Assembly: GCA_965205505.1 (NCBI GenBank)
Contig: CBDBHB010000009.1
Span: 2,240,001-2,304,000 of the forward strand
Direction: 5' to 3'
Source: Acidobacteriota bacterium
Lineage (GTDB): Bacteria; Acidobacteriota; UBA890; WLXD01
Length of the DNA stretch: 64,000 bases
In this document: piece after piece, positions 3,302 to 63,933 of the stretch
How positions within the stretch are numbered: the stretch's first letter is position 1
How the letters are laid out: each line of letters begins with the position of its first letter
Notes under the pieces: generated by a model
What the model was told of the DNA's origin: nothing
The model's database searches: none
Seen by the model: the letters and a program-made list of their open reading frames with translations, nothing else
Translations under genes and position numbers: made by a program

Positions 3302-4486
3302 ATGACCGACGACCTCTACATTCGCGACGCTAGCTCGCTAGCGCAATTCGCGGAGCGGCTTCGGGGTGTAAGCTCGCTGGCGGTCGACACCGAGTTCATC
3401 CGCGAGCGCACCTACTATCCGAGGCTGTGTCTCATTCAGCTCGCGGCTCCCGGCCTGCTGGCGGTCGTGGATCCGCTGGCTGTCGATGATCTCGGGCCGC
3501 TGTGGCGCGTGCTCACCGCAGGACCGGAGCTCGTGCTGCATGCGGCCGGACAGGATCTGGAAATCATGCAACGGCTTGCCGGGCGGTTACCCGCGAGTCA
3601 CTTCGACACCCAGGTTGCGGCCGCGTTCCTCGGGTACGGCGACAGCATCAGCCATGCCAAGCTCATCGAACGAGTCGTCCGGGTCACCCTGAAACGCTCC
3701 GAAGCTTACACGGACTGGGCGCGGCGGCCGCTTTCGGATGAGCAGACCGAATATGCCCTCGACGATGTGCGCTACTTGCTCGAGTGCGCCGAGACGTTGC
3801 GTACGCAACTGGCGGAACGCAACCGGCGAACTTGGGTGGAGGAGGAGCTCGAGAGGGTGATGCGTGGCGTCAACGCCAGCCCGGATCCAGATCAGATGTG
3901 GCGTCGCGTGTCGGGTGCGAGATCGCTGACGGGCCGCGGACTTGCGATTCTCGCCCGTGCCGCCGCGTGGCGAGAACGCGAGGCGGTGCGCCGCGACATT
4001 CCGCGGCAGCGGGTGGTGGCTGACCGGGTGCTGATCGAGATCGCCCGTCGCGCCCCGAAACGGCAGGCCCAGGTCGAACGCCTGCGTGGGCTGCACCCGC
4101 GCGAGGCGCAACGGTCCGCGGCGACGATCGTCGCATTGGTTCGCGAGGCCCTGGAGTCGGACCCCACCACCTGGCCGGAGGCTCGTAAGCCGCGGCCCCG
4201 CGGCGGAGAGCAAACAGTCGAGATTCTGGCCTCGCTTCTGGATGCCGTGGTCCGCACCCGTGCCGCCGAGCTGGAGTTGGCTCCGCGATTGCTGGCCAAG
4301 CGAGCCGACTTGGAGCGGCTCGTGCGCCAGGAAATCGACGCCGACGCCAAGCAAGACGGCATCCCGGTTCTCGCGGGTTGGCGGCGCGAGAACGTCGGTG
4401 AACAGTTGCTGGCGTTGCTGCGCGGCGAGGCTCAGGTCAGTGTGGAACCAACCCAAGAAGGGTTGCGTCTGCGCCTCGAGAGCTAG
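3302..4486 (+). CDS. rnd: Ribonuclease D
   Basis: AVDTEF, RERTYYPRLCLIQ, FDTQVAA, TDWARRPLS, YALDDV; HRDC region; GWRRE tail. Confidence 0.95.
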   Translation: MTDDLYIRDASSLAQFAERLRGVSSLAVDTEFIRERTYYPRLCLIQLAAPGLLAVVDPLAVDDLGPLWRVLTAGPELVLHAAGQDLEIMQRLAGRLPASHFDTQVAAAFLGYGDSISHAKLIERVVRVTLKRSEAYTDWARRPLSDEQTEYALDDVRYLLECAETLRTQLAERNRRTWVEEELERVMRGVNASPDPDQMWRRVSGARSLTGRGLAILARAAAWREREAVRRDIPRQRVVADRVLIEIARRAPKRQAQVERLRGLHPREAQRSAATIVALVREALESDPTTWPEARKPRPRGGEQTVEILASLLDAVVRTRAAELELAPRLLAKRADLERLVRQEIDADAKQDGIPVLAGWRRENVGEQLLALLRGEAQVSVEPTQEGLRLRLES

Positions 4487-4760
4487 TGTCCTGAGTCAGA
4501 AATCCGTTGCATATTGTGGCGCGCGCCACCGAGTCGAATCCAAGGAGGCCCGACGACGGCGATGCCATGCGTATCGCAGAGGAGGGCCGACGCCGGAGGC
4601 GGCCGGCGTCGCGGCCACCCGGAGGGCTGGGTCGATATGGGGGCAATCTCAGCGTTGCGATTCGTCGACGATGGCCACCGCATCGCCATCCTCATCGCGC
4701 CTTGAGCTTGCCCCCATCTCGACCCAGCAATATGTAACGAACCTCTGTTACAGGACACAG
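4483..4760. mobile_element. MITE-like element (278 bp) with IS630-like CTAGTGTCC...GGACAC(T)AG ends and two inverted structured cores
   Basis: Imperfect ~30-bp TIRs (tgtcctgagtcagaaatccgttgcatattg versus the reverse complement of caatatgtaacgaacctctgttacaggaca); partial second copy at 63810-63933. Confidence 0.8.
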
Positions 4761-4790
4761 CAGGCCGTGGTGGAACTGTGGCGGGCCTGG
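4759..4790 (+). repeat. Short dispersed repeat (agcaggccgtggtgRaa.tgtggcgggcctgg), IS-end-like
   Basis: Near-identical to 55763-55794; shorter inverted copy at 38768-38786. Confidence 0.65.
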
Positions 4791-4807
4791 TTACGGCTCG
4801 TGACGCC

Positions 4808-6061
4808 CTACTGGCCTCGCGGCTTGGCCGTGCGAGTCCCACCGGACCGGCCGCTGCTGCGCCCGCCAGGACTGACGGAACCTTTCGATCCGCCGGAACG
4901 ACCACCGGAGCCCATCGAGCCTCCTGACCGTCTACCGCGCCCGCCGAAGATATTGCGGAAACCGCCGGGGGCGTTGTTGCTCAGTCCGACCCGAGCGTAG
5001 CCGCGGCCGGCGATGACGCGCCCGCCGTGGCGACCAATGTTTCGTCCGGGATAGAACTGCGAGCCGCCCGGGTAGTACCCGTACCCATAGCCGGTCCCAT
5101 ACCCGGTCCCATACCCATACCCATACCCATACCCGTAGCCGTAGTAGGAGCCGAAGCCGAACGGTGCGAACGCCGGACTCCAGTACCCGTAGCCGTACAC
5201 CGGGTAGTAGCCCGAGCGCCGCCGCCGACCTTCTTCCGTGTTCTCCTCACCATCAACGAGGAAGTAGTCGGGAAACGACAACGCCACCATGACATCGATC
5301 ACCGGTGCCGGGACGTCGGTTTCTGCCAGCCGCATCAGCAGCGAGGAATCCATGTCGAAGCCGGCGTTGGTTTCGATCAACGCTGCTTCGACCGCCGCGG
5401 CGTCGATAATGGCAACCGCCTCGATCACGTCGTCCACGTCGAACGGTGACGCCGCGGTCGATTGGCTGCCGGCGGTGGCCATGGCGTAGGAATCGAGGCC
5501 GAAGCGCGTCACGCTCCTGCCGGTCTCGTCGGCCACTCGCCGGTAGCGACGCACGAGGACCTCACGCTCGCCTTCGGCGTCGATCACCTGCACGTCAACC
5601 CAGCGGTTCGGCGTCGCCAGCAGCGATATCCCCGAGGCCTGGCGTGCCATCCCGTCCTCGCACTGCAGCGAGGCGAGGTTGAACAGCCGCTGGCGGTCGG
5701 CGGAGAACAGGGTGCGCTCGCTGCCGGTGCAACTGCCGTCGTCGACCGGACGGGCGGTGCCGTCGCCGTACACGGTGCGCGTATCGGCCAGCTCGCCGTC
5801 GATCAGGGTGGTGACTACGGCCGTTCGCGGCTCGGGGCCCGACTCCAGGCACACCATGCGCTCGCCGTCAGCGGAGCCGACGCCCCGGTCGTCCAGGCCG
5901 TTGATCAACTTCCAGCAACCGCTCCAAGCGGCCCACCCGTCGATCGGTGCGCTCGTCGCTTCCTGCGCCATTGCCGCAGCAGGTGCAAGCGCAATCAGGA
6001 CGGCGCCGGCAACGCACATCAAGCCTCGTAGCATCCGCTGCGATCGTTTCTTTTCCCGCAT
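4808..6061 (-). CDS. Secreted hypothetical protein with Cys pairs and a Gly/Tyr-repeat, Gly/Arg/Ser-rich tail
   Basis: Signal peptide (LIALAPAAAMA-Q), RBS ggagggg before ATG 6061, low-complexity C-terminus. Confidence 0.8.
   Translation of the reverse strand: MREKKRSQRMLRGLMCVAGAVLIALAPAAAMAQEATSAPIDGWAAWSGCWKLINGLDDRGVGSADGERMVCLESGPEPRTAVVTTLIDGELADTRTVYGDGTARPVDDGSCTGSERTLFSADRQRLFNLASLQCEDGMARQASGISLLATPNRWVDVQVIDAEGEREVLVRRYRRVADETGRSVTRFGLDSYAMATAGSQSTAASPFDVDDVIEAVAIIDAAAVEAALIETNAGFDMDSSLLMRLAETDVPAPVIDVMVALSFPDYFLVDGEENTEEGRRRRSGYYPVYGYGYWSPAFAPFGFGSYYGYGYGYGYGYGTGYGTGYGYGYYPGGSQFYPGRNIGRHGGRVIAGRGYARVGLSNNAPGGFRNIFGGRGRRSGGSMGSGGRSGGSKGSVSPGGRSSGRSGGTRTAKPRGQ
5074..5147. repeat. 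Coding hexamer tandem repeat (cccata/cccgta)n encoding (GY)n
   Basis: atacccatacccatacccatacccgtagccgtag; peptide YYGYGYGYGYGYGTGYGTGYGYGYY. Confidence 0.8.
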
Positions 6062-6071
6062 GACCCCTCCC

Positions 6072-6884
6072 TTAGAACTTGAACGCCACACCCGCGGTGG
6101 CGTGCAAGCCGTTCAAATCGATCGGCGCGAAGCCGACGAAGCTGTCTTTGAGATCAGCACTCGCCCAGTGGTACCGAGCATCGATGACCAAACCGATGGA
6201 CGGCGTGAGCTTGATATCCACGCCGGCAAAGGCGTGGGCCGCCGCGGTAAAGCCGTCTGAGTTGAACGTATCTTCAAAGATAGCGAAGTCGCGAAAGTCG
6301 ATGAACTCACCCGCCTGTTCCAGCTCATACCAGGTAAAGCCACCGCCGGCCCCGATGTAGGGGACAACAGTGTTCGGTACCCAAGCGTACTGGCCAACCC
6401 GCTGCCCGCGCGACCCCAGGTACCATTTCAGGCTCAATGTAAGCGGTACCTGCGTAAGCGCGGTCTCTTGCACGATCGGAATATCGTCCTGGTCGACGAA
6501 ATCCCGATAATCGGAGATCTTGCTCTTGCGGCTGTACTCCACGCCGAATACCAGATCGACCTGATCCGACAGCCGCATGCCGAAGTCGAACGCGATGATC
6601 CCGGCGTCGAAGTCGGAAGGCTCGAGCGTCAGATCACCGGTCAGGAAGTCGAAGATCTCGCCCTCGGCGCGATTGAAGGCGTAACCGCCGCGAATCCCCA
6701 AGGTGCTGTTCGGAGAACTGAACCTGAAATCAGGCCCCTGCGTACGGCCGCTGGGCTCGTCGTCGGGAGTGGCCGACGCGATGGCCGGAACCAGCAGAAT
6801 GAGCGAACAGAGCGTCGCCGCCCGCCAGCTGGTGGCGAGATGTCGGCGACCCCGGTTGAGCCTTTCAAACCAATCGTTGCGCAT
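6072..6884 (-). CDS. Outer-membrane beta-barrel protein (OmpA/OmpW-like barrel)
   Basis: Signal peptide, amphipathic strands (VVPYIGAGGG, AFAGVDIKL), C-terminal GVAFKF. Confidence 0.85.
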   Translation of the reverse strand: MRNDWFERLNRGRRHLATSWRAATLCSLILLVPAIASATPDDEPSGRTQGPDFRFSSPNSTLGIRGGYAFNRAEGEIFDFLTGDLTLEPSDFDAGIIAFDFGMRLSDQVDLVFGVEYSRKSKISDYRDFVDQDDIPIVQETALTQVPLTLSLKWYLGSRGQRVGQYAWVPNTVVPYIGAGGGFTWYELEQAGEFIDFRDFAIFEDTFNSDGFTAAAHAFAGVDIKLTPSIGLVIDARYHWASADLKDSFVGFAPIDLNGLHATAGVAFKF

Positions 6885-12774: not shown

Positions 12775-12847
12775 GGCGGTGTAGCTCAGTCGGCAGAGCA
12801 GGCGGCTCATATCCGCCGAGTCGGGGGTTCAAGTCCCTCCACCGCCA
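12775..12847 (+). tRNA. tRNA-Met(CAT), probably elongator
   Basis: GGCGGTG/CACCGCC acceptor stem, anticodon arm ggcgg-CTCATAT-ccgcc, T loop TTCAAGT; CCA not encoded. Confidence 0.92.
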
Positions 12848-21229: not shown

Positions 21230-21305
21230 GGGCGGTTAGCTCAGCTGGGAGAGCACCTGCCTTACAAGCAGGGGGCCACTGGTTCGAGTCCGGTACCGCC
21301 CACCA
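21230..21305 (+). tRNA. tRNA-Val(TAC)
   Basis: Cloverleaf, anticodon loop CTTACAA, encoded CCA. Confidence 0.97.
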
Positions 21306-21347: not shown

Positions 21348-21425
21348 GGGGCCGTGGTGTAGCTTGGTTAACACGCCGGCCTGTCAAGCCGGAGATCGCG
21401 GGTTCAAATCCCGTCGGCCCCGCCA
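21348..21425 (+). tRNA. tRNA-Asp(GTC)
   Basis: Cloverleaf, anticodon loop CTGTCAA, encoded CCA. Confidence 0.97.
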
Positions 21426-34253: not shown

Positions 34254-37244
34254 ATGAGCCGCGTTGCTTCGAGAGTGTTCGTTTCGCTTCTGATCATTGC
34301 CATCGTGCTGCTGACGGGTACACCCGCTAGATCGCAGGGAGACGGGTACTGGCAGGCAGTTGAGAGGATCCGCGACGAAGGCTTCAATCGTTCTCAGGTG
34401 ATCGATTATGCGTGGCACCTCACGGACGTAATCGGTCCGAGGGTCTCAGGTTCTGCCAACATGCGTGAGTCGCAAGAATGGGCTTTGAGCACGATGCAAC
34501 AGATCGGGCTCAGCGACGCAACGATCGCGCCTTGGGGCGAGCACGGTGTGAACTGGGACGTCGAATACGTTTCGCTGCACATGCTGGAGCCCGACTACCA
34601 GCCGTTGATTGGCTACCCACAGGCTTTCACCGCCGGGACCAACGGGAAGATCAGCGGCGAGGTCGTGCTTGCCGATATCGGAAGCAAGGCGGAATTGGAG
34701 GATTATCGCGGCCGTCTGCAGGGCGCAATCGTGCTCTCCACACCGATGCGGCAATACGGCCCACGATTCAAACCGGCCGCGATCCGTCACGACGACGGGT
34801 CGCTAGCGACGTTTGTCGAGGAAGGCGTGGACCGGAATAACGCTTTGCGGCGCGAGGAAGAGTGGACCCGAAATCCGCTGCGGCGTGAAGATCTCGGCGC
34901 CGATGAGCTGGAGGAGTTCTTCAGGTCCGAGGGTGTTGCCGTGGTTCTGGTGGCCGCCCAAGGCGGGGACGGCACGGTCTTCGTCACCGGTAGACGCGAC
35001 CGGTCGCCGGCATCGGTGCGCAATAGCCTTCCGACGCTGTACATCGCACCGGAACACTATGGCCGGATGTATCGTTTGGCCGCCGCCAACGTCTCGGTGA
35101 CGATGGAAGCGGAGGTTCGCATCCGCATCGAGGAGCGCGACAGCCAAGAATACAACGTGATCGGCGAGATTCCGGGCAGCGATCTGGCGCACCAGGTCGT
35201 CATGATCGGCGCCCATCTCGACTCCTGGCACTCCGGCACTGGCGCCACCGACAATGCTTCCGGATCGGCGTGTGTCCTTGAGGCCATGCGTATCTTGAAG
35301 GCCATCGGTGTGGCGCCGCGCCGCACGATACGAGTGGCGCTTTGGAGCAGCGAGGAGGGCGGGCTACGCGGCTCCCGCGCCTACGTAGCCGAGCATTTCG
35401 GGAATCCGCGAGACGGCATGAAGGCCGACTACGAGAACTTCTCTGCCTACTTCAACATGGACAACGGCACGGGCCAGGTTCGTGGAATTCATCAGCAGGG
35501 CAACCAATTCGTCGCGCCGATCTTCGAGGCGTGGATGAAGCCGTTCGACGATCTTAAGGTCGGCACCCTGTCGAACTTCAGCAATCGCGGCTCCGATCAG
35601 CTGTCGTTCGATGAGGCGGGGTTGCCCGGGTTCCAGATCTTGCAGGATCGCATCGAATACCGCACCCGCACCCACCACACGAACATGGATGTGTTCGACA
35701 AGTTGTTGCCCGAGGATCTGAAGATCAACTCGGTTGTTCTCGCCAGCCTCGCCTATCAGGCAGCGATGGTTGACGAGCGCATGCCGCGCAAATCGTTCAC
35801 TGATTGGCGGCCGCAGTTCGAGACTGTGCAGGAGGAGGTGTTCGGTGCCGGCAACACCTACACCAACGCGGTCGCGGACTACGACAACGATGGCGACCTG
35901 GACATCTTCGTGGGCTTCAATCAACGCGCCAACCGGCTGTACCGAAACGACGGCGGGATATTCACCGATGTGGCCGCGCAGGTCGGTGTTGCCGACAACG
36001 ACGTGACGCGGGCCGCGGCCTGGGGCGACTACAACGGCGACGGGCACCTGGATTTGTTCGTCGGCTTCGTTTCGCGTCAGGGAAGCTCGAGCAGGCTGTA
36101 CGAGAACACCGGCGACGGGGGGCAGTTCACCGACGTGACGGAAGCTGCCGGGCTCGAGATGACCGGTAGCTTTCGGCAGGTGAGCTGGGTCGACTACGAC
36201 ATCGATGGAGATGTCGACCTGTTCGTCGGTCTACGCGACAAACCAAACGCTCTGTACCGAAACGACGACGGCAGGTTTACGAACGTTGCCCAGGCTCTGG
36301 GTGTAGACGATCCGCGCCGCACCGTCGGCGCCGCGTGGCTCGATTTCGATGCGGATGGTGATCTCGACCTCGTGGTCGCCAACATGGACGGCGATGCCAA
36401 TGGCCTGTTTCGCAATGATCGTTCGCGCTTCGTCGACGTGGCCGCTCAGGCCGGTCTAGACCACGGCGGGCGAGTGCTTGGAAACGCATCGTTCGGCACC
36501 GTGAGGCCAGCGATTGCGGATTTTGACAGCGATGGGAAGCTCGACGTCTTCATGGCCAACTACGGACCCAACGGCCTCTTCCGGAACCTGGGAGACGGTA
36601 TGTTCGAGAGCGTCGCGCCACGCATGGGGCTGGCCATCGACAGCCGCTACGACACGGCGACATGGGGCGACTACGACAACGACGGCCGTCCCGACCTGTA
36701 TGTCAACGGTACCGTCAGCGGCGGCCGCAACTACCGTGACTACCTGTTCCACAACGACGGTGACCGGTTCACCGACGTCACGCCGCCGGTGGTCGGTGAT
36801 CAAGAGTCCGACCATGGCGCCCACTGGGCCGACATGGATGGCGATGGCGACCTCGATCTGGCGCTCACCGGCGGTTCCGCGGCGGGTATGCACTACGTGC
36901 TGCTGAACTCACAGGTTGACGAACGCGCCCGCAGATCGTTGCAGGTGCTCGTTCTCGACGCGGACGGCCGCTACACGCGTGCCGGCGCAGAAGTTCGGCT
37001 GTTCGATGCGGCGAGCGGCGCGCTGCTCGGAACGCGCATCGTCGACACGGGGTCCGGCTACAACTCTCAGAACGCCATGCCCGTGCACTTCGGGCTGGCG
37101 AGAGAGGCCCTCGTGGAGGTCGAGGTGACGACAATGACGCGACAGGGTCGAAGGCGTGCGCGACTGTCGGACATCGATCCGAGTGCCTACGGCGGTCGCT
37201 GGCTTGTCGTGAAGGTCGATGAGAACGGAGATGTAGGGCAATAG
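34254..37244 (+). CDS. Secreted M28 peptidase fused to an FG-GAP/VCBS propeller and ASPIC/UnbV domain
   Basis: GAHLDSW, GATDN, EEGGL, GSD, HHT, then repeated DYDxDGDxD units and SGYNSQN...HFGL. Confidence 0.88.
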   Translation: MSRVASRVFVSLLIIAIVLLTGTPARSQGDGYWQAVERIRDEGFNRSQVIDYAWHLTDVIGPRVSGSANMRESQEWALSTMQQIGLSDATIAPWGEHGVNWDVEYVSLHMLEPDYQPLIGYPQAFTAGTNGKISGEVVLADIGSKAELEDYRGRLQGAIVLSTPMRQYGPRFKPAAIRHDDGSLATFVEEGVDRNNALRREEEWTRNPLRREDLGADELEEFFRSEGVAVVLVAAQGGDGTVFVTGRRDRSPASVRNSLPTLYIAPEHYGRMYRLAAANVSVTMEAEVRIRIEERDSQEYNVIGEIPGSDLAHQVVMIGAHLDSWHSGTGATDNASGSACVLEAMRILKAIGVAPRRTIRVALWSSEEGGLRGSRAYVAEHFGNPRDGMKADYENFSAYFNMDNGTGQVRGIHQQGNQFVAPIFEAWMKPFDDLKVGTLSNFSNRGSDQLSFDEAGLPGFQILQDRIEYRTRTHHTNMDVFDKLLPEDLKINSVVLASLAYQAAMVDERMPRKSFTDWRPQFETVQEEVFGAGNTYTNAVADYDNDGDLDIFVGFNQRANRLYRNDGGIFTDVAAQVGVADNDVTRAAAWGDYNGDGHLDLFVGFVSRQGSSSRLYENTGDGGQFTDVTEAAGLEMTGSFRQVSWVDYDIDGDVDLFVGLRDKPNALYRNDDGRFTNVAQALGVDDPRRTVGAAWLDFDADGDLDLVVANMDGDANGLFRNDRSRFVDVAAQAGLDHGGRVLGNASFGTVRPAIADFDSDGKLDVFMANYGPNGLFRNLGDGMFESVAPRMGLAIDSRYDTATWGDYDNDGRPDLYVNGTVSGGRNYRDYLFHNDGDRFTDVTPPVVGDQESDHGAHWADMDGDGDLDLALTGGSAAGMHYVLLNSQVDERARRSLQVLVLDADGRYTRAGAEVRLFDAASGALLGTRIVDTGSGYNSQNAMPVHFGLAREALVEVEVTTMTRQGRRRARLSDIDPSAYGGRWLVVKVDENGDVGQ

Positions 37245-38767: not shown

Positions 38768-38786
38768 ACTTTCACCACGGCCTGCT
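38768..38786 (-). repeat. Short copy of the agcaggccgtggtgaaagt repeat
   Basis: actttcaccacggcctgct is the exact reverse complement of 55763-55781. Confidence 0.55.
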
Positions 38787-38803
38787 GCCAGGAGGAAAAC
38801 ACC

Positions 38804-52986: not shown

Positions 52987-53264
52987 TAACAGGGTGCTGA
53001 AGAACTCTGGTGGGTCTGGCGCGTGGGTCTTGCTGGCGAGATCAAGGAAGAGGGACGATGGCGATGCCAGGGGGCATCGTCGAGGAGCTCTGACGCTGAG
53101 ATCGTCGGCAACCCCCACGCGCCCTACGGGTTACGGCGTCGTGGGGCCACCTGCGGCGTTGGCCCTCCTGGACGATACAACGAGCATCGCCTGCGTCGCG
53201 CTGCCTTGCATCTGGCCCCACGACGCCATAACCAGACCCACCAGAGTTTTTCAGCACCCTGTTA
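52987..53264. mobile_element. MITE-like element (278 bp) with 33-bp IS5/IS1182-like TIRs and two inverted structured cores
   Basis: taacagggtgctgaagaactctggtgggtctgg ... ccagacccaccagagtttttcagcaccctgtta (1 mismatch in 33). Confidence 0.85.
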
Positions 53265-54029
53265 AGGCTCCGGCTGGCGCGCCGTCGGTCTGATCGGCGC
53301 TCGCTGTGCCAGCACCTCGCGCGTATAGGACGGTGCGGCCTGGATCTCGCAAGCGGCGAAGCGCGACAGCATCAGGCGGATCTCGGCGTCCACCCAGTTG
53401 GTCGGCAGCCTCCGCGGCACCGCTGCGGAGGTGACCTGCAGGCTCTGCCGGTCGACGATCTGGTACTGGCGCCGAGTGTCGAGCCGCCCGTCGGAATCCA
53501 GGAAGACCGCGTGCATGAGGCCGGAACGGCAGAGCAGTCGATGGCATTCGCGGGCGAACTGGCGGGCGAGCACGAACGGCAGCCGCGAGAGCACGTTCCA
53601 TGAACAGATCGCCGAGTAGCTACCGTCCTCGAAAGGTAGCCGCTGCTGGCGGAGGGTGTCGGTCGAGAGCGTCAAAGGCGTGATCTCGAGTGGTCCGAGT
53701 CGTCGGGCCTCACGCGTGAACAGATCGTAGCAGCTGACGTCGAACCCTCGACGGGCCCAGAACTGGATGTTCTCGTTGTTCGTGGGCCCGAGATCGAGGA
53801 TGCGAGCCGGGGCAGCCGAGGCATCCAGCGCTCCGGTCATTCGCCACAGCAGATTCGAAGGATACGCGCGGTTGGGGAGCAGGTCATCCTCGGAGCGCTC
53901 CGCAACGTCCAACGTCGCGGTCGCGAAGTCACGCGTACGGAGGTCGCGCGGGCCCTTCACATCGACGGAATCGGCCACCGTCAGCGGCCCGCCACGCTCG
54001 ACGTCGATGGGCCGTCGGGCGCAGCCCAC
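53262..54029 (-). CDS. Class I SAM-dependent methyltransferase-like protein
   Basis: ILDLGP, LPFEDGSYSAICSW, CHRLL; start uncertain. Confidence 0.7.
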   Translation of the reverse strand: MGCARRPIDVERGGPLTVADSVDVKGPRDLRTRDFATATLDVAERSEDDLLPNRAYPSNLLWRMTGALDASAAPARILDLGPTNNENIQFWARRGFDVSCYDLFTREARRLGPLEITPLTLSTDTLRQQRLPFEDGSYSAICSWNVLSRLPFVLARQFARECHRLLCRSGLMHAVFLDSDGRLDTRRQYQIVDRQSLQVTSAAVPRRLPTNWVDAEIRLMLSRFAACEIQAAPSYTREVLAQRAPIRPTARQPEP

Positions 54030-55751: not shown

Positions 55752-55794
55752 CACGGCCTGCTAGCAGGCCGTGGTGAAAGTGTGGCGGGCCTGG
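55752..55794. repeat. 22-bp CTAG-centred palindrome plus a copy of the dispersed repeat
   Basis: cacggcctgCTAGcaggccgtg, continuing gtgaaagtgtggcgggcctgg as at 4759-4790. Confidence 0.65.
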
Positions 55795-55916
55795 CGACAG
55801 GGTCTTGCGAGGGGGAGGCGCCTAGACTATCACCGTGTCGGAGGTGGCGCGGCATTCGGAGCGCCGTCGCTGGCGAGCGCCTCATCAGCAGCGAATGGGC
55901 GCCGGTCGCGACGCTC

Positions 55917-63809: not shown

Positions 63810-63933
63810 TAGTGTCCTGTAACAGAGGTTCGTTGCATATTGTGGCGCGCGCGCCTGAGTCGAAACCAAGGAGGCCCGACGACGGCGATGCTGAGGGTAT
63901 CGCAGAGGAGGCCGACGCCGGAGAGGACACTAG
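63810..63933. mobile_element. Internally deleted copy of the IS630-like MITE at 4483-4760
   Basis: tagtgtcctgtaacagaggttcgttgcatattg, one core copy, then aggacactag. Confidence 0.8.

Follow-up and report, generated by a model that had tools for sequence, protein, structure and literature searches.

A covarying two-rod cassette in type II MITEs of an Acidobacteriota genome, carried on ends from at least four transposase families

Type II MITEs (defined in PMC10969869) such as RUP of S. pneumoniae, which is attributed to IS630-Spn1 (PMC2229807), are described in the sections of these sources available to us as elements of less than 500 bp with IS-like TIRs, a TA duplication, no transposase, an intergenic position, many copies and stable stem-loops. 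The elements reported here share all of these features, but a single interior is combined with the ends of four transposase families and shows covariation among genomes that bear the labels of several phyla, and the same sections of PMC10969869 and PMC2229807 describe no shared interior of that kind. A second relevant system is ERIC (also IRU or RU-1) of enterobacteria, which those sections report to alter mRNA decay at the 3′ ends of genes (PMC2229807, PMC10969869). CIR elements of Caulobacter, as far as that part of PMC2229807 describes them, also consist of two independently folding arms and a linker, but they are about 110 bp, lack TIRs and are defined by a GANTC site. REP and BIME sequences (20–40-nt tagged palindromes with an HUH (Y1) transposase) differ in size and in IS-type ends; both they and CIR are set apart by description. 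No account of the present cassette family was found in a literature search whose scope stopped at subscription journals, ISfinder and supplements; among the latter, the MITE catalogue that accompanies bioRxiv 2024.01.18.576219 could contain the elements as sequence entries.

The window, a 64-kb stretch of DNA analysed at its full length, contains two full elements, E1 (4486–4758) and E2 (52989–53262), and one derivative. A first-pass annotation made from the sequence had proposed five copies of a conserved core, and all five (4541+, 4704−, 53043+, 53208− and 63867+) were found at the positions and on the strands it gave; its core pattern, run as a regular expression, recovers them among 54 matches genome-wide, and a covariance model (CM), which it had suggested, picks out the identical five modules. 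The annotation had given both elements a length of 278 bp and one plan of TIR, core, hairpin, inverted core and TIR. The lengths are indeed near-equal, but that figure counts target bases unevenly, and between the duplicated TA the elements measure 273 bp (E1) and 274 bp (E2). The plan holds as well, with the reservation that the two TIRs of E1 (4486–4516 on the + strand and 4728–4758 on the − strand) agree at only 24 of 31 positions; the 33-nt inverted arms of E2, which include the target TA, are 97% complementary.

Within E1, the CM and the fold place module 1, a rod hairpin with a C-G loop pair, at 4512–4620 on the + strand (core 4541–4595; CM 77 bits), and module 2, with a G-C loop pair, lies at 4624–4732 on the − strand (core 4650–4704; CM 112 bits, a near-identical copy being in the training set). 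Between them is the expected central 3-bp hairpin (4618–4626), whose loop is UNCG when read on the − strand and GNA when read on the + strand. In E2, module 1 (53015–53124, + strand; core 53043–53098; CM 98 bits, family in the training set) and module 2 (53128–53236, − strand; core 53154–53208; CM 99 bits, in the training set) both have a C-G loop pair and flank a central 3-bp hairpin at 53122–53130 with its UNCG loop on the + strand. Enclosing stems that differ in sequence while keeping their pairing had also been claimed, and by eye the two are complementary at 19 of 20 and 18 of 19 positions. Across their unlike ends E1 and E2 are significantly similar (blastn, 70% over 161 nt, E 2.7e-9), and their folding z-scores are −8.9 and −15.0, with none of 200 shuffles equal. 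The core at 63867 is present too, but its host is a deletion derivative of the E1 family (63812–63930, + strand) that keeps the left TIR, one core (63867–63920) and a short right tip. The conserved unit is thus real, but it exceeds the 55-nt core and is better described as a rod of about 105 nt and then a two-rod cassette of about 215 nt.

Both insertions occupy the TA within CTAG or CTAA, each on the stop codon of a gene: the left target TAG of E1 (4484–4486) is the rnd stop codon, and the right target bases of E2 are the TAA stop of an ORF at 53262–54029 on the − strand. When empty sites were sought in close relatives (G001–G004), both E1 and E2 proved to be missing at the orthologous positions. 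Read mapping of six sequencing runs not recorded as RNA contained no empty E1 allele, and the region 4400–4900 around E1 contained neither an intrinsic terminator nor a sigma-70 promoter consensus. At its right side E1 abuts, at a shared target, a remnant end of an IS1182-like-ended family (4760–4797, + strand); a remnant of that type is also found at the G004 site, and the family has left three short core-less remnants in the window in all, the others being at 38773–38787 (− strand) and 55762–55825. Elsewhere the window contains three tRNA genes (12775–12847, 21230–21302 and 21348–21422), a 38-nt coding repeat in five copies spaced 150–327 nt apart (35877–36706), which may encode part of an FG-GAP/VCBS-type repeat protein, and a Tyr/Gly-rich coding repeat at about 5030–5130 in the ORF at 4808–6091 (− strand), with 12- and 24-nt length variants among related samples.

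The elements are abundant in this genome, of which they make up roughly 0.9%. An iterated core HMM found 367 cores (E<0.05) that group into 210 clusters, and on the reversed genome it made one hit, at E about 1. Among the cores are 138 head-to-head pairs, nearly all 54–56 nt apart. The paired elements form families of 47, 40, 21, 8, 6 and 4 members, plus smaller ones, and the ends differ between families while the plan is constant: a TIR of about 31 nt, a rod of about 105 nt, a 3-bp hairpin, an inverted rod and a TIR. The cassette measures 213–224 nt in 68 two-module loci, of which almost all come from other genomes, and 54 of the 68 have UNCG as the central loop on one strand and GNA on the other; the core lies 55–60 nt from the element end in nearly all intact elements. 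The loop pairs of the two rods are C-G plus G-C in 41 of 58 scored and C-G twice in 12. Loci L047, L032, L080, L203 and L064 have IS5-type or IS1182-like ends and one intact module, the second arm being an outer stem around unrelated sequence.

Both ends could be located for 88 of the 138 pairs, the set used for all target-site and stop-codon counts. The reconstructed empty target is CTAG in 72 of these 88, TTAG in seven, CTAA in three and another sequence in six; a 2-bp TA duplication, rather than one of 4 bp, fits these reconstructed sites. Members of one family are about 96–98% alike, and of 30 insertion loci tried in G004, 20 were syntenic with this genome (14 empty, five occupied and one with ends only). 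The empty orthologous sites show that the elements have been recently mobile. A different dispersed repeat of about 370 bp, with several full or partial copies 84–98% identical and no core hit, lies near G000:C9 2198085–2198456 (G000 being this genome), beside one IS630 copy.

The first-pass annotation had called the ends of E1 IS630-like and those of E2 IS5/IS1182-like, and the labels IS630 for E1 and IS5 for E2 were borne out. This genome has two copies of a 1190-bp IS630 whose right end shares its 16 terminal nucleotides with the left end of E1; its transposase scores 273 bits against NF033545 (cut-off 100). The ends of E2 match 1.3-kb IS5-family elements in other genomes of the phylum at 16 of 18 and 15 of 18 nucleotides, and the transposase of those elements scores 270 bits against NF033581 (cut-off 140). 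A cognate transposase for E2 was sought in this genome (96% complete, nine contigs) without a match to PF05598, PF13751 or NF033551, and no IS5/IS1182-type transposase with such ends was found there; PF13340 was absent from five genomes searched. In the commonest family here, 21 nt including the target are identical to the end of a 1.5-kb element with four copies in G011, for whose transposase IS1182 is the best family, yet under its cut-off (158 versus 270 bits). True IS1182 elements (375 and 277 bits) account for two more end types, a further one is similar to a second type of IS5, and the one-module elements have IS1380 ends. Autonomous IS630 (NF033545), IS5 (NF033581), IS1182 (NF033551) and IS1380 (NF033539) elements resemble the MITEs in the terminal 15–21 nt and in YTAR-type targets. 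The ends of IS701 match no element end, and long TIR-bounded intervals considered as autonomous parents looked, from their translations by eye, like chance pairings around ordinary genes.

None of the IS630, IS5, IS1182, IS1380 or IS701 loci scanned contains a CM hit to the module, and among 121 metagenome loci a single transposase match was found nearby, outside the element. Type I MITEs, which are internally deleted insertion sequences, could therefore be rejected as the class of these elements, as none of the IS loci scanned has a counterpart of the interior. E1 and E2 are type II MITEs: they are short, with TIRs, a TA duplication, dispersed copies, empty sites and a likeness to IS that is confined to the ends. 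The identity of these ends suggests that they are likely transposed in trans by IS630 and IS5 transposases. Of the earlier proposal that a structured module is mobilised by different transposases, one structured single-stranded module on the ends of different transposase families is therefore observed, and the mobilisation itself is read from end identity. The module is absent from G152 and five relatives, though G152 has IS5-type ends. A different MITE with the same IS5-type end begins at position 1501 of L193 (G228); it gives no CM hit, and a repeated palindromic motif of its own lies inside it.

Several observations bear on an exchange of ends. A tree of 76 cassettes implies 26 changes of end class, where 9 is the minimum and 51 the shuffled mean; the backbone of this tree is open, its well-supported clades mix end classes, the end label is more clustered than chance, and the classes are regular-expression labels among which GGGYCTGT, GAAGGGTGTT and other TAGTG types are tied to no transposase. 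Cassettes with an IS630-like end (labelled by motif only) and an IS1182-type end reach 87% identity, the cross-class median being 63%. This genome also contains full-length hybrids whose two ends are of different types, and in one metagenome locus an IS630 abuts an IS5-ended element at one shared CTAG. Likely, ends have been exchanged at such shared CTAG sites, in a manner that we infer as follows: all these transposases would favour the same YTAR sites, which would bring IS ends next to cassettes, and a cassette may then acquire new ends by deletion or recombination. As a separate observation, two of the six IS630 copies (G000:C9:263590-264779 and G000:C8:138044-139185) have a CTAG in common with an adjoining end of the IS1182-like-ended family, and the transposase of the latter copy is frameshifted (182-aa frame).

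The module is found well beyond this genome. In a sample of the phylum the CM found it in 35 of 121 genomes, and an exact-pattern scan of GTDB returned at least 119 loci. Among 80 listed loci most are titled Acidobacteriota, and the others are titled Gemmatimonadota, Bacteroidota, Myxococcota, Akkermansiaceae, Brocadiaceae and Spirochaetaceae, labels that are those of the MAGs. Five genomes with non-Acidobacteriota labels, one for each of these labels except Spirochaetaceae, were checked and contain 6–20 modules each on several contigs. A plasmid search with E2 gave ten weak hits, none covering more than 22%, and viral contigs gave two pattern hits with weak cores, none of the 119 matches to a loop-only pattern there having an enclosing stem.

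The fold of the module is supported by covariation, a check that the first-pass annotation had recommended. When 33 modules are aligned with MAFFT, double changes occur at 30 of 35 pairs and 88% of cells are paired, compared with 34–50% in slid controls on the same alignment; fitting 117 sequences, most of them from outside this genome, to the CM gives an alignment that leans towards the model, and in it 33 of 35 pairs covary. The most invariant columns (93–99%) are the loops, in which AAGG faces RACGC, and tandem G-A pairs. The latter flank a lone pair that flips between C-G (78 sequences), G-C (36) and another combination (1) in the 117-sequence alignment, below an apical GAT/ATC stem with a G-U pair that is conserved in 76 of the 117. 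Mismatches on the sense strand are biased (G-T 107 versus A-C 41; A-G 115 versus C-T 18). With RNA parameters the sense strand is the more stable one in 177 of 204 modules, whereas with DNA parameters this holds for 92 of 204 (and for 41 of 103 in a second set of modules). The mean predicted probability of the loop pair and the apical pairs is 0.82–0.91 as sense RNA and 0.14–0.58 as DNA (103 modules); the invariant G-C beside the AAGG loop is predicted neither as RNA nor as DNA. The module is therefore predicted to form its core on one strand as RNA, and poorly as DNA. DNA energy models may under-count sheared G-A pairs, so that this contrast is soft, and the central loop does not discriminate because UNCG on one strand is GNA on the other. 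RNA over single-stranded DNA is thus favoured by folding models, short of proof.

The reading to which we give slightly better than even credence is that E1 and E2 are gene-less MITEs, likely moved in trans by IS630 and IS5 transposases, and that they enclose a conserved two-rod cassette likely acting as a folded RNA in the read-through transcript of a neighbouring gene. The purine-rich G-A and AAGG/AACGC loops would bind a widespread host RNA-handling factor, or resist one (in decay or Rho-type termination). Such an effect could make insertion at the 3′ end of a gene harmless or mildly useful, and copies would survive there as donors. Because its rods are inverted, the pair would provide one in the sense direction whichever way the element is inserted.

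We rank this RNA role at gene 3′ ends above a role of the cassette as single-stranded DNA in transposition, which is a credible but distinctly less probable explanation. On the lagging strand or as an extruded junction, the cassette would fold and recruit a general host factor or join the ends, and so raise mobility with any transposase. This is the simplest account of why unrelated transposases carry the cassette; it explains the fixed geometry, that is, the narrow range of cassette length and of the distance from core to end, and the GNA triloop that the central loop would form as DNA on one strand in 54 of the 68 elements. Selection on active lineages only would also fit the weak depletion of private mutations described below and the absence of orientation bias in decayed copies. 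However, DNA parameters do not favour the sense strand, the covarying core is poorly formed with them, and the conserved G-U pair speaks against it as well. Furthermore, DDE transposases act on double-stranded ends, and their own IS manage without the module.

Genomic context bears on the RNA role at gene 3′ ends. By our own codon-model gene calls, 46 of the 88 full elements lie exactly on a stop codon, compared with 538 of 2443 non-coding CTAG sites (odds ratio 3.9, p 1e-9); 30 of 88 lie between convergent genes, and divergent regions contain 10 of 88 elements compared with 540 of 2425 CTAG sites. Target choice, or selection against insertions elsewhere, could also account for the excess on stop codons. 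In co-directional contexts, with module types matched across families by hand, the two orientations are equally frequent (24 versus 24), and the largest family alone gives 15 versus 5. The first-pass annotation had argued that an inverted pair offers one sense copy whichever strand is transcribed; the lack of overall bias in two-module elements is as predicted, but the counterpart expected of lone modules is weak or missing. In the 160-bp one-module family, 19 of 23 clear flanks on the sense side have a gene reading in, compared with 15 of 26 on the antisense side (p 0.07; 13 further flanks are unclear), and single modules in this genome have no lean (17 sense versus 21 antisense). This one-module family (L181:1462-1622 in G072, with relatives in G310 and G311) has been recently active, with near-identical copies, many of them on stop codons.

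Private mutations are about twofold rarer in the core (16 of 3760, or 4.3 per 1000) than elsewhere in the elements (180 of 21886, or 8.2 per 1000; p 0.008); an earlier run had given a 5–11-fold depletion relative to stems, TIRs and other positions, which was probably inflated by core-based copy selection and mixed subfamilies. The core rate equals that of the inner TIR and is not different from that of the outer stem, so that selection on resting copies is unsupported. Of two metatranscriptomes, one yielded a single 186-nt contig (depth 3.9) that matches a sister family; it may stem from DNA carry-over, and contigs cannot show transcription.

Alternatively, the cassette may have no function and descend from one old MITE, its copies kept alike by recombination and palindrome-templated repair, with CTAG hotspots as the places where its ends were changed at random. 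There are many chimeras and nested copies, orientation bias is missing in this genome, and compensatory changes of the kind seen in the stems are obtainable in this way, hairpin-templated repair being able to create them. Repair of this kind should remove mismatches, but no part of the module is more invariant than its mismatched loops, while the stems turn over; the single in-loop pair flips from C-G to G-C unbroken; and the pattern holds in genomes labelled as several phyla. We therefore consider this explanation improbable. Still less probable is that the module is a signal for reverse-transcriptase copying, or a catalytic or processing RNA, with copies rising through an RNA step as in SINEs or introns: the strand-specific RNA-like fold, the fixed length and the position right after stop codons would agree with it, but the ends match DDE insertion sequences, the target TA is duplicated, no ribozyme or intron family of Rfam matches the module, and the fold is a simple rod.

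Returning to described repeats, the first-pass annotation had asked whether the core belongs to a known RNA family or repeat. At gathering scores, Rfam 15 identifies only three tRNAs in the window; below threshold, its best scores are 15–20 bits (cut-offs 36–168), chance matches to miRNA and snoRNA families. For ERIC the answer is divided, as no whole-module match was found but one loop of the core is common to both. The comparison used 13 ERIC-like copies of E. coli K-12, which have no ERIC annotation in the record; a 20-nt stretch of one of them co-occurs with the word ERIC in 379 papers. ERIC, like the module, is a TA-ended rod hairpin that folds better on one strand (six of six K-12 copies folded), with tandem G-A near its tip, and its consensus in the available part of PMC2759123, read as the reverse complement, has CAAGGCGGC paired with GCCAACGC in the same register as the commonest module here. 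A descriptor of the proximal loop (AAGG facing AACGC), written after seeing both, fits four of the 13 K-12 copies and 131 of 338 modules, with no antisense match, none in 520 flank windows and two in 3900 shuffles. In contrast, ERIC consists of one rod only, of 127 bp, its TIR is 7 bp, and its middle is longer and different. The CM gave no hit in two copies, and HMM cross-searches found nothing in either direction, so that the element is not an ERIC. The two share a sub-motif in their sequences, which points to either descent or convergence.

The interior of a MITE is commonly regarded as decayed filler. In these elements it is the interior that is conserved and the ends that are exchangeable, over four DDE transposase families and genomes bearing the labels of at least six phyla. 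They make up a type II MITE superfamily with a constant, covarying two-rod cassette, on which ends from at least four transposase families are exchanged. The module itself is a well-defined structured motif that is absent from Rfam. A bolder possibility, which we hold only tentatively and think doubtful as a whole, is that the cassette is a structured RNA shared between phyla, distantly related to the ERIC core, that acts through a universal bacterial RNA-handling factor and behaves as a selfish non-coding module, taking its ends from any available transposase that targets CTAG or TTAA. If so, its ligand would also explain the conserved interior of ERIC. Since one loop of the module recurs in ERIC, what reads these repeats is testable directly in E. 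coli.
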